Part shown: positions 6,001 to 12,000 of the stretch, piece by piece | Layout of the letters: the number at the start of each line of letters is the position of its first letter | How positions within the stretch are numbered: the first letter of the stretch is position 1 | From: a virus | Lineage: Duplodnaviria > Heunggongvirae > Uroviricota > Caudoviricetes | IMG/VR virus record: IMGVR_UViG_2718218360_000008 | DNA length: 64,000 nucleotides | Strand: one strand, 5' to 3' | Position numbers: made by a program

Positions 6001-9000
6001 CAGAAAATGAAGATTAACCACAGGGAGTTTTGTTTTTATTGGCCCGAAAAAACTGTAACGCCCGGGAATGATATCTGCCACGGGGGCGTACAGAAAATGT
6101 GAAGAAATTCAGAAATTTTATTCCGTCATGACACAGGCACCCTCCGGGGTGCCTGTCGTTTTTGGGGCATAAACAGATTCAGACATCAGACAGGAGAGGG
6201 GGACAGAGTGGGTAAAGGTGGCGGCAAGGCGCACACGCCGGTAGAGGCAAAGGACAATCTTAAGTCCACGCAGATGATGAGCGTGATTGATGCGATTGGT
6301 GAAGGGCCGATTGAAGGTCCGGTGAAGGGGCTGCAGAGTATTCTGGTGAACAAAACCCCGCTGACGGACACGGACGGTAATCCCGTGATACACGGTGTGA
6401 CTGCGGTCTGGCGTGCCGGGGAGCAGGAGCAGACACCACCGGAAGGCTTTGAGTCCTCCGGAGCTGAAACCGCACTGGGCGTGGAAGTGACGAAGGCAAA
6501 GCCGGTGACGCGCACCATTACGTCCGCGAACATTGACCGCCTGCGGGTCACCTTCGGGGTGCAGTCACTGTTGGAGACCACCTCAAAGGGCGACCGTAAT
6601 CACTCTTCTGTCCGACTGCTGATTCAGTTGCAGCGTAACGGTAACTGGGTGACGGAAAAGGATGTCACCATTAACGGCAAGACCACCTCGCAGTTTCTGG
6701 CGTCGGTGATTCTGGATAATCTGCCTGAGCGGCCCTTTAACATCCGGATGGTCCGGGAGACAGCGGACAGCACCTCGGACCAGCTGCAGAATAAGACGCT
6801 CTGGTCGTCATACACCGAAATCATCGATGTGAAACAGTGCTACCCGAACACGGCCATTGTGGGGCTGCAGGTGGATGCGGAGCAGTTTGGCGGTCAGCAG
6901 ATGACGGTGAACTACCATATCCGCGGTCGCATCATCCAGGTACCGTCAAACTATGACCCGGAAAAACGCACGTACAGCGGCATCTGGGACGGCAGCCTGA
7001 AACCGGCATACAGCAACAACCCGGCCTGGTGCCTGTGGGACATGCTGACTCACCCGCGCTACGGCATGGGAAAACGCCTGGGGGCGGCGGATGTGGACAA
7101 GTGGGCGCTGTATGCCATTGCGCAGTACTGCGACCAGATGGTCCCTGATGGTTTCGGGGGCACAGAGCCGCGGATGACCTTTAATGCGTACCTGTCACAA
7201 CAGCGTAAGGCGTGGGACGTTCTCAGTGATTTCTGCTCGGCGATGCGCTGTATGCCGGTATGGAACGGCCAGACGCTGACGTTCGTTCAGGACAGTCCGT
7301 CGGATGTGGTGTGGCCGTACACCAACAGTGATGTGGTGGTGGATGATAACGGCGTGGGGTTTCGCTACAGCTTCAGCGCCCTGAAGGACCGCCACACGGC
7401 GGTGGAGGTGAATTACACCGACCCGCAGAACGGCTGGCAGACCTCCACGGAACTGGTGGAAGACCCGGAAGCCATACTGCGCTACGGGCGCAACCTGCTG
7501 AAGATGGATGCGTTCGGCTGTACCAGTCGCGGTCAGGCCCACCGTGCCGGGCTGTGGGTGATAAAGACCGGACTGCTGGAAACGCAGACGGTGGATTTCA
7601 CGCTCGGGTCACAGGGGCTGCGTCACACACCCGGTGACATTATTGAAATCTGTGATAACGACTATGCCGGGACCATGACCGGCGGACGTATCCTGTCCAT
7701 CGATGCCGCCAGCCGCACCCTGACACTGGACCGTGAGGTGACCCTGCCGGAGACCGGTGCCGCCACGGTGAACCTGATTAACGGCAGCGGTAAGCCGGTG
7801 AGCGTGGCCATCACTGCACACCCCGCGCCGGACCGGATACAGGTCAGCACCCTGCCGGATGGCGTGGAGACATACGGTGTGTGGGGGCTCTCCCTGCCGT
7901 CACTGCGTCGTCGCCTGTTCCGCTGTGTCTCCATCCGGGAAAACACGGACGGCACCTTTGCCATCACGGCAGTGCAGCACGTACCGGAAAAAGAAGCCAT
8001 CGTGGATAACGGGGCGCACTTTGACGGCGACCAGAGCGGCACCCTGAACAGCGTCATCCCTCCGGCAGTGCAGCACCTGACGGTGGAGGTGAGTGCAGCT
8101 GACAGCCAGTATCTGGCGCAGGCGAAATGGGACACGCCGCGGGTGGTGAAGGGCGTGCGCTTCAGTCTGCGCCTGACCAGTGGAAGCGGTCAGGACAGCC
8201 GTCTGGTGACCACCGCCATCACTGCGGATACAGAGCATCGTTTCAGTGGTCTGCCGCTCGGGGAATACACCCTGACAGTCAGGGCAATTAACAGTTATGG
8301 CCAGCAGGGGGAACCGGCCATCACCACCTTCCGGATTAACGCGCCAGCAAAACCCGCCACCATTGAACTGACGCCGGGGTATTTTCAGATAACGGCGGTA
8401 CCGGTGCTGGCGGTGTATGACCCGACGGTGCAGTTTGAGTTCTGGTTTTCGGAAAAACGCATCACGAACACGGCACAGGTGGAAAAATCTGCCCGTTATC
8501 TGGGGAGCGGCAGTCAGTGGACTGTCCAGGGAAGCCGGATTAAGCCGGGGACGGATTTCTGGTTTTACGTGCGCAGCGTCAACCTGGTGGGGAAATCTGC
8601 GTTTGTGGAAGTCAGCGGGCAGCCCAGCAATGATGGTGAAGGGTATCTGGAATTTTTCCGGGAAAAAATAGGAAAACTGCATCTGGCTCAGGGGCTATGG
8701 GAGCTGATAGACAACAGCCAGCTTGCGGATGAGATGGCGGAGATGAAGACCACCATCACGGAAACCCGCAATGAAATCACACAGACGGTCAGTAAAACGC
8801 TGGAAGACCAGAGCGCCACTATCAGCAGATACAGCGCGTGCAGAAGGACACAAATGATGACCTGGCTGCGCTGTACATGCTGAAGGTTCAAAAAACGAAA
8901 GACGGCATTCCCTATGTGGCCGGGATTGGTGCAGGGATTGAGGATACTGATGGCCAGCCACTGAGCAACATACTGCTGCTGGCTGACCGTATCGCGATGA

Positions 9001-12000
9001 TAAATCCGGAGAGCGGCAACAGCACGCCGTTATTTGTGGCGCAGGGGAATCAGCTGTTCATGAACGACGTGTTCCTGAAGCGACTGTTTGCGGTGAGCAT
9101 CACCTCATCCGGCAATCCTCCGACGTTTTCCCTGACGCCGGACGGGCGACTGACGGCGAAAAATGCGGATATCAGTGGCAGTGTGAATGCGAACTCAGGG
9201 ACGCTCAACAACGTCACGATTAATGAGAACTGTCAGATTAAGGGGAAACTGTCAGCCAACCAGATTGAAGGGATATTGTCAAAACGGTCAGCAAGTCTTT
9301 CCCCCGCACGAGCACTTATGCCAGTGGCACCATCACGGTAAGAATCAGTGATGATCAGAAGTTTGACCGGCAGGTCATGATACCGCCAGTGTTATTCCGC
9401 GGTGGTAAGCATGAGAATTTCAACAGTAATAACCAACAGTCATACTGGTATTCAACCTGCCGGTTAAGAGTGACCCGCAATGGTCAGGAGATTTTTAATC
9501 AGTCCACGACGGATGCTCAGGGCGTATTTTCCTCAGTTATAGATATGCCTGCCGGACAGGGGACGCTGACACTGACATTCACCGTATCTTCATCAGGAGC
9601 GAATAACTGGACACCAACAACCAGTATCAGCGATCTGCTGGTTGTGGTGATGAAAAAATCCACAGCAGGTATCAGTATCAGCTGAATTTTATAACCCAGA
9701 ACGGGCGTCCAGAAATGACGCCTTTTTTATTGCAGAAAAGCGAGAGGTAATTATGCGTAAACTTTATGCCGCCATTTTGTCCGCAGCCATCTGTCTGGCC
9801 GTATCCGGCGCGCCTGCATGGGCGTCTGAGCAGCAGGCCACGCTGAGCGCGGGGTATCTTCATGCCCGGACGAGCGCTCCCGGTAGCGATAATCTTAACG
9901 GGATTAACGTGAAATACCGTTATGAGTTTACGGACACACTGGGGCTGGTGACGTCATTCAGCTATGCAGGAGACAGGAATCGCCAGCTTACCCGTTACAG
10001 CGATACCCGCTGGCATGAAGATTCCGTGCGTAACCGCTGGTTCAGCGTGATGGCGGGGCCCTCTGTGCGCGTGAATGAATGGTTCAGCGCGTATGCGATG
10101 GCGGGCGTGGCTTACAGCCGTGTGTCGACTTTCTCCGGGGATTATCTCCGCGTAACTGACAACAAGGGGAAAACGCACGATGTGCTGACCGGAAGTGATG
10201 ACGGTCGCCACAGCAACACGTCTCTGGCGTGGGGAGCTGGCGTGCAGTTTAACCCGACCGAATCCGTGGCCATTGATATTGCTTATGAAGGCTCCGGCAG
10301 TGGCGACTGGCGCACTGACGGTTTCATCGTGGGTGTCGGTTATAAGTTCTGATTAGCCAGGTAACACAGTGTTATGACAGCCCGCCGGTTCAGGCGGGCT
10401 TTTTTGTGGGGTGAATATGGCAGTAAAGATTTCAGGTGTGCTGAAAGACGGCACAGGAAAACCGGTAGAGAACTGCACCATTCAACTGAAAGCCAGACGT
10501 AACAGCGCCACGGTGGTGGTGAACACGGTGGCCTCTGAAAATCCGGATGAAGCCGGTCGTTACAGCATGGACGTTGAGTACGGTCAGTACAGCGTCATTC
10601 TGTTGGTGGAAGGATTCCCGCCGTCACATGCCGGGACCATCACCGTGTATGAAGATTCCCGACCCGGTACGCTGAATGATTTTCTCGGTGCCATGACGGA
10701 GGATGACGTCCGTCCGGAGGCACTGCGTCGTTTTGAACTGATGGTGGAAGAAGCGGCGCGTCACGCTGAGGAGGCGAAGAAGAATGCCGGAGAGGCGGAG
10801 ACGTCAGCGAGGAATGCCGGCATATCAGCCAGTCAGGCAGAAGAGAGCGCGGCAAATGCTGACACTTCAGCAGGGGAGGCATCGGAGTCAGCCCGGCAGG
10901 CGGCAGAAAGTGCAGCCGCTGCAAAGCAGTCAGAGGAGGCGTCCTCGTCCTCGGCTTCTGCGGCCGCTCAAAAAGCCAGTGAGTCATCACAAAGTGCAGC
11001 AGAAGCTGAATTGTCAAGAAAGACGGCAGAAAGTGCAGCCGGTAATGCAGCCAGGGATGCAACGACCGCAACAGAAAAAGCCCGGGAGTCAGCAGAAAGC
11101 GCACAGTCAGCGGAACAAAGCAGGATAGCGGCGGAAGAAGCCGTAAACCGAATCCCCACCGTGGTGGGACCTCCCGGGCCAAAGGGGGAACAGGGGCCCG
11201 CGGGTCCTCAGGGGCCGAAGGGTGATAAGGGAGAGCGCGGTGACACCGGCCCTGTCGGGGCAACCGGCGAACGGGGACCGGCAGGTGATGCTGGTCCGGC
11301 AGGCCCGCAGGGGCCGAAAGGTGACAGGGGAGAGCGGGGAGAGACCGGTCTGACGGGAAATGCAGGTCCACAGGGTCCAAAGGGAGATACCGGTGCGGCA
11401 GGCCCGGCAGGCCCACAGGGACCGAAAGGAGAAACAGGTGCGGCTGGCCCGGTGGGGGCAACCGGACCTCAGGGACCGAAGGGCGACCCGGGGGAGACAC
11501 AAATACGGTTCCGTCTGGGGCCGGGAAACATTATTGAGACAAACAGCCATGGCTGGTTCCCGGATACAGATGGCGCACTCATCACCGGACTGACCTTTCT
11601 TGACCCCAAAGATACCACACGGGTTCAGGGTTTTTTTCAGCATTTGCAGGTCAGGTTTGGTGACGGGCCGTGGCAGGATGTTAAGGGGCTGGATGAAGTG
11701 GGCAGTGATACAGGCAGAACAGGAGAATGACATGAACGTACTAAAAAAACTTATGCAGCGTCTGTGCGGTTGCGGAAAGCATGATGACCGTGAACATGGG
11801 GAGTTACTTACAGCACAACTGCGTCTGGGACCGGCAGACATTCTGGAGTCCGATGAGAATGGCATTATCCCGGAGCAGGACAGGGTAATCACGCAGGTGG
11901 TGATACTGGATGCGGATAAAAAGCAGATACAGTGCGTGGTAAGACCGCTGCAAATCCTGCGTGCTGACGGGAGGTGGGAAAATATTGGCGGAATGAAATA

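Follow-up and report, generated by a model that had tools for sequence, protein, structure and literature searches.

Is the tail tip gene J of a lambdoid prophage truly inactivated when its reading frame is broken twice by the lack of a single base, or were the bases lost from the consensus? This question is raised by the window analysed here, that is the whole stretch of 64,000 nucleotides taken from the IMG/VR virus record IMGVR_UViG_2718218360_000008 (Caudoviricetes), which consists of lambdoid prophages arranged in tandem, of the kind known from enterohaemorrhagic Escherichia coli (EHEC; O157:H7). The gene in question, J copy 1 (positions 6208–9685, plus strand), codes for a homologue of lambda gpJ, the tail tip attachment or host specificity protein, and has a second copy further downstream. 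Genomes of the O157:H7 type contain many near-identical copies of tail genes. Our sequence comparisons indicate that the two missing bases are very probably consensus or assembly errors rather than bacterial mutations, and that the real J copy 1 would thus encode an intact tail tip protein of 1159 residues.

Results

Two single bases are missing from J copy 1

The first-pass annotation of the window had reported two single-base differences between the J copies, located in non-homopolymer context, which either inactivate the tail tip protein or reflect consensus errors. String matching and pairwise alignment confirmed the differences. At site 1, CCACTATCAGCAGATAC is present once in the window (8816–8832, copy 1), and so is its counterpart CCACTATACAGCAGATAC (31177–31194, copy 2); the same holds at site 2 for GAAGGGATATTG (9267–9278, copy 1) and GAAGGCGATATTG (31629–31641, copy 2). 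Alignments with copy 2 and with 11 other J alleles place the gaps between 8822 and 8823 and between 9271 and 9272, the deletion-bearing strings being CACTATCAGCAG and GAAGGGATATTG, respectively. The repeat copies in which the two J genes reside (1120–12072 and 23497–34437) are 97.2% identical, the two one-base gaps in J copy 1 being among their differences. Absence of a homopolymer holds at both sites when copy 2 serves as reference (TATACAG and GGCGAT), but not at site 1 when the comparison is made with the O111:H8-type allele that surrounds it (CATTCAG), relative to which the lesion is a contraction of TT to T.

From the GTG start at 6208 to the stop at 9685, the region shares 99.8% identity with genes annotated as gpJ in O157:H7 genomes, which measure 3480 nt, two bases more than the 3478 nt as written. 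It is located between a homologue of tail assembly protein I and lom, followed by tail fibre genes, and is collinear with three annotated loci. As written, the coding region falls into three fragments on the plus strand: 6208–8883 (frame 0) comprises J codons 1–871 plus 20 out-of-frame codons and ends with TGA; 8838–9341 (frame 2) represents the true J frame between the deletions and ends with TAA; 9377–9685 (frame 1) runs from an internal ATG to the J stop and lies within the C-terminal receptor-binding domain. Site 1 (8822–8823, plus strand) lacks the third base of Ile codon 872, which is A, T or C in other alleles, at the start of the Phage_Tail_Tip domain. Site 2 (9271–9272, plus strand) lacks the third base of Gly codon 1022, C or T elsewhere, just ahead of the C-terminal receptor-binding domain (Pfam, repaired residues 1036–1159). 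Both lost bases are therefore synonymous third-codon positions (Ile ATA/ATT/ATC; Gly GGC/GGT).

The single open frame of about 1130–1160 codons that characterizes gpJ is absent from the sequence as written and emerges only once both bases are restored. Restoring one base per site yields a gene of 3480 nt and 1159 codons without internal stop, whose product differs from the common O157:H7 protein WP_000514788.1 by one residue (N867D). In the repaired protein (1159 aa), all six domains, i.e. FNIII-A_GpJ, Phage-tail_3, Ig_J, Ig_J_second, Phage_Tail_Tip and Ig_GpJ_C, score above the Pfam gathering cut-offs. There is no sign of neutral decay, as the 860 nt 3' of the first deletion are fully open in the original frames.

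The deletions are private to the window sequence

To learn whether the deletions occur elsewhere, 80-nt queries around each site were compared with 5426 complete E. coli genomes. None of the 2868 places found in 695 of these genomes matched the deletion at site 1 exactly, and the same was true of the deletion at site 2 for 3853 places in 1852 genomes. Every matching place, at either site, spans 81 bases, that is, it contains the extra base, and none attains an identity of at least 99%. Exact 30–31-mers with the deletions had zero matches in genome_contigs and viral_contigs, and the 30-mer with the site-1 deletion had zero matches in metagenome_contigs as well; the intact 31-mer was found in nine viral contigs. 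An exact look-up among about 15 billion proteins, with the start residue as translated and as M, did not return the frameshift-specific products of the open reading frames (ORFs). The proteins on record are generic fragments only (a 102-aa C-terminal piece, an 881-aa piece of copy 2 and a 291-aa piece of the tape measure protein), and they originate from unrelated loci, namely the J gene of strain TX 265-1 with its Mu-like insertion and loci of other assemblies. An inherited pseudogene would be shared with related strains, which neither J deletion is; both are private and missing from close relatives, as expected for assembly errors.

One-base indels accumulate between 8.8 and 29.3 kb

The two deletions in J copy 1 are the first of a long series of one-base indels (insertions or deletions). 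The stretch from 8805 to 29333 (plus strand) corresponds, in circularly permuted order, to a prophage that strain 143 and O111:H8 strain 7-58 72A carry at the prfC site, and contains about 35 such indels. Between 8800 and 29400, 35 one-base indels were counted versus 43 substitutions, a ratio of 0.8, as compared to natural ratios of 0.02–0.07 for the same modules in pairs of complete genomes. Local one-base indels are thus in excess over natural divergence, as expected for assembly errors, and a sliding table of 500 nt reveals differences consisting of gaps only over a background of zero mismatches. Relative to strain 7-58 72A, there are eight one-base deletions and no substitution in the 7 kb of 22400–29400, and 21 one-base indels (14 deletions, seven insertions) in 12085–22400. 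The densest part is the lysis region at 12215–13810, right past an abrupt join at 12071/12072, with 18 one-base indels in about 1.7 kb; 9300–12071 contains two indels and one substitution. By-eye inspection of the listed indel contexts for the methylation motifs GATC and CCWGG revealed no consistent motif.

No one-base indel was detected in 1–8800, in 29368–40298 or, relative to strain 2014C-3011, in 39906–49400. Moreover, 1–6941 shows 0 differences to O157:H7 strain 7409 and 29368–40298 shows 0 differences to O157:H7 strain TX 265-1, while 29333–32297 matches a draft contig of O157:H7 at 100% identity. The series ends with the indel at 29332. Close by, at 29330, lies the start of a short-read contig from a different O157:H7 strain, marking the edge of the sequence that prophages have in common. 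At an identity of at least 99%, the O111:H8-type segment 22400–29400 is matched by only nine complete genomes, and EDL933 is not among them, which makes the 2001 record of that strain an unlikely source of the window. An error spread uniformly over the whole window was considered and rejected, as 39906–49400 differs from strain 2014C-3011 only by substitutions and one 11-nt indel.

Many genes of the stretch are affected. The gene for the terminase large subunit is broken by one-base deletions at 15233 and 16253, the copy-2 tape measure gene by a deletion at 24841, and further tail genes by deletions at 20437, 23132, 27011, 27906 and 28324. In contrast, the corresponding prophage in strain 143 and O111:H8 strain 7-58 72A has almost all of these genes in intact form; its late region is annotated with no defects other than a partial tail assembly protein T and a remnant of a tail-assembly gene.

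Both J deletions fall on sites that discriminate paralogs

The first part of this stretch, 8805–9271 (plus strand), is a patchy zone containing 12 sites at which O157:H7-type and O111:H8-type J alleles differ. At these sites copy 1 has the O111 base five times, the O157 base five times and no base twice, in the order O111, O111, O157, none, O157, O111, O157, O111, O111, O157, O157, none. This combination occurs in no complete genome; the best matches differ at all these sites or at the gap. That is, both J deletions fall exactly on discriminating sites (2 of 2; A/T at 8822 and C/T at 9271; P = 1.7e-4).

A similar situation is encountered past the join. At 12215–13810, the window switches patchily from the O111:H8-type haplotype to the haplotype of the third prophage (60648–64000). 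Within 12085–15432, seven of 12 deletions hit sites that differ between the O111-type sequence and this third-prophage copy, although such sites make up 2.7% of the positions (P = 8e-9). The lesions thus coincide with paralog-differing sites in J copy 1 and in 12085–15432, and no enrichment is seen in the copy-2 tail. We know of no mutational process that predicts loss of a base exactly at sites where paralogs differ; loss at such places would be expected of a consensus derived from mixed reads or of an ambiguity code that was removed.

J copy 2 and further features of the window

The comparison underlying the first-pass annotation implied that J copy 2 is intact, which proved wrong. Copy 2 (28572–32048, plus strand; 3477 nt) is indeed intact at both sites where copy 1 carries deletions, but it has three one-base deletions of its own in its 5' part, after 29136, 29194 and 29332, leading to a first stop at codon 208. 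Since the three deletions sum to −3, the frame recovers, and restoring the three bases again yields 1159 codons. Within the first 650 nt of J, 23 additional differences separate the two copies (6219–6860 in copy 1). In strain TX 265-1 (CP038290.1, 2780399–2803044), the orthologous J gene is interrupted by a Mu-like prophage at the point from which the sequence is identical to the window (~29368). This insertion accounts for the 881-aa J fragment on record, which is identical to the product of window positions 29403–32048.

The window also provides an example of a frameshift of another kind. The gene for a DUF4765-family effector (35231–38618, minus strand) is split into ORFs of 290 and 846 aa. 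The same split is present in O157:H7 strain TX 265-1 with 100% identical DNA, and RefSeq marks the gene of strain YB14-1 as frameshifted. In contrast to the private J deletions, the DUF4765 split is a genuine inherited pseudogene.

With respect to overall layout, 1–12071 comprises a tail module. Next come the lysozyme join, the genes for lysis, terminase and head, and another tail module that extends to 34437. Between this module and the third prophage, which opens with its integrase gene (40446–41576), lie effector genes and a remnant of ompW. At the join (12071–12072, plus strand), the tail-fibre module ends and the lysozyme gene sets in abruptly at about its codon 5; this join forms the edge of an apparent 22.4-kb tandem unit. 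It is present in 0 of the 5426 complete genomes, while each half is 100% identical to sequence in hundreds of them; the join is either a strain-specific rearrangement or a misjoin.

Three further observations concern small differences to reference sequences. First, a terminator-like hairpin 3' of J copy 1 has an extra C at 9709 and a T-run that is one T shorter (9722–9728) as compared to the O111:H8-type sequence, with no substitutions nearby. Second, the gene for the terminase large subunit of the third prophage is truncated (ORF 62806–63129) by a one-base deletion at 63120 (GGTGGTG to GGTGTG) over a zero-mismatch background, outside of the main indel-rich stretch and again in repeated sequence. 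Third, an 11-nt insertion relative to strain 2014C-3011, CTCTGCAAAAC at 40394–40404, is located between the ompW remnant and the integrase gene of the third prophage; here, CTCTGCAAAAC runs straight into a second CTCTGCAA, forming a near-tandem repeat.

Discussion

Of the two options left by the first-pass annotation, a broken J as written is certain, inactivation of the protein is disfavoured and an error in the consensus is favoured. Three observations lead to this view: both deletions are private to the window sequence; they belong to a 20-kb stretch that is ruled by isolated one-base indels and bordered by flanks that match their references base by base; and both fall exactly on sites that discriminate paralog haplotypes. 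The double frameshift in J is ordinary and most likely not a real feature.

As to the technical cause, we infer that the region from about 8805 to 29333 was built from data that could not be cleanly assigned to one prophage copy. This may have happened when a long-read bridge remained beyond the reach of short-read polishing, or when a consensus was formed from reads of two paralogs. In either case, bases would have been lost or gained sporadically within this region. At haplotype switches, the base at a discriminating site may sometimes have been lost, either in the consensus step or by later stripping of an ambiguity code, and both J deletions, at which A competes with T (8822) and C with T (9271), would be of this kind. 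Short-read polishing is known to be unreliable in repeats, where errors often persist (PMC8812927), and the 2001 record of O157:H7 EDL933 contained 2,413 non-N ambiguous bases (PMC4132626).

Several points weigh against consensus error as the explanation. Deletions in the copy-2 tail, which has no switch zone, are not enriched on discriminating sites (one of seven), and thus more than one error process has to be assumed. Copy 1 is free of errors over the 6.9 kb that precede its first difference, and the J deletions are situated at the edge of the indel stretch rather than in its densest part. Finally, genuine frameshifts are common in O157 prophages (PMC2669165), and the RefSeq annotation of strain TX 265-1 includes a gpJ gene labelled as frameshifted.

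A stronger form of the consensus-error explanation, rather than an alternative to it, holds that the whole region of about 8805–29333 is a structural misassembly, in which a single J gene exists and O111:H8-type DNA, e.g. from the prfC site, was threaded in. We consider this possible but doubtful. The stretch is a circularly permuted piece of the single prfC prophage found in strain 143 and O111:H8 strains, both of its flanks are of the O157:H7 type, the join at 12071/12072 occurs in none of the complete genomes despite its two common halves, and indel density peaks just past it. However, the stretch ends at different J coordinates (about 2600–2900 and about 730–880), so that cutting it out does not give a simple single gene. 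Moreover, the 23 differences between the copies in the 5' 650 nt of J mean that two distinct J 5' ends exist, and O157:H7 strain EDL933 does carry large prophage duplications (PMC4132626).

That the deletions are real and private to the strain, making J copy 1 a pseudogene, appears improbable. In this case, the product would stop 20 codons past residue 871, lacking the tail tip fibre and C-terminal receptor-binding domains, and infectious particles would form only if another prophage supplied J. There are precedents: the prophages of O157 Sakai have many genuine defects including frame-shift mutations, for which other prophages can compensate (PMC2669165), gpJ genes that are labelled as frameshifted or are interrupted by a Mu-like phage exist in complete RefSeq genomes, and the DUF4765 pseudogene is carried by the very same window. 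Nevertheless, neither deletion is shared with any of the 5426 genomes, and two private indels without a single private substitution in 9.7 kb contrast with the natural ratios given above. No mutational process known to us predicts that both deletions coincide with discriminating sites, the deletions are embedded in a unique patchy mixture of haplotypes, and the neighbouring 20 kb display the same type of lesion about 33 more times with almost no substitutions. We are similarly sceptical of a scenario in which J, truncated after residue 871, was freshly inactivated in an apparently duplicated late region, leaving the prophage dependent on the J protein of its neighbour.

Synthesis of J by programmed ribosomal frameshifting at both sites, for which nothing speaks except that the three fragments are open in consecutive frames, can be dismissed, since one continuous frame is seen in each of the 11 homologues compared and at every matching place of the complete genomes, the frameshift sites are not conserved and two frameshifts in the same direction would be needed.

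The main value of the observation is that of a quality flag: until the reads have been checked, genes called in the region of about 8.8 to 29.3 kb should not be taken as biology, and the same caution applies to statements on which of the prophages is defective. Both J copies, the copy-2 tape measure gene, the terminase gene and lysis genes are concerned. Two signs of the artefact could be used for other windows, namely one-base gaps without background substitutions and gaps placed precisely at positions that distinguish paralogs. Should the deletions be true after all, they would add one more ordinary defective O157 prophage.

With regard to known systems, J copy 1 shares with lambda gpJ genes of EHEC lambdoid prophages the gene order (tape measure, M/L/K/I homologues, J, lom, tail fibre), the six Pfam domains and 99.8% nucleotide identity, and differs in the two breaks, at codons 872 and 1022, that its frame shows as written. 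The pool of defective prophages in E. coli O157 Sakai (Asadulghani et al. 2009, PMC2669165) offers a parallel insofar as a gene for morphogenesis or host specificity appears to be disrupted in a lambdoid prophage that shares its genome with many related ones. However, genuine defects, such as the DUF4765 split, are inherited and common to several strains, whereas the J deletions are private and bear the signature of errors. A likeness also exists to the residual consensus errors that long-read or hybrid bacterial assemblies retain in repeats (Wick and Holt 2022, PMC8812927) and to the ambiguous calls in repeat-rich O157:H7 records (Latif et al. 2014, PMC4132626), with which the window shares the dominance of indels, the prevalence of deletions over insertions and the confinement to prophage-paralog sequence between perfect flanks. 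In contrast to these cases, the lesions of the window lie only partly in homopolymers, and a distinct subset is found exactly on paralog-discriminating sites, which points to a consensus of mixed reads or to lost ambiguity codes.

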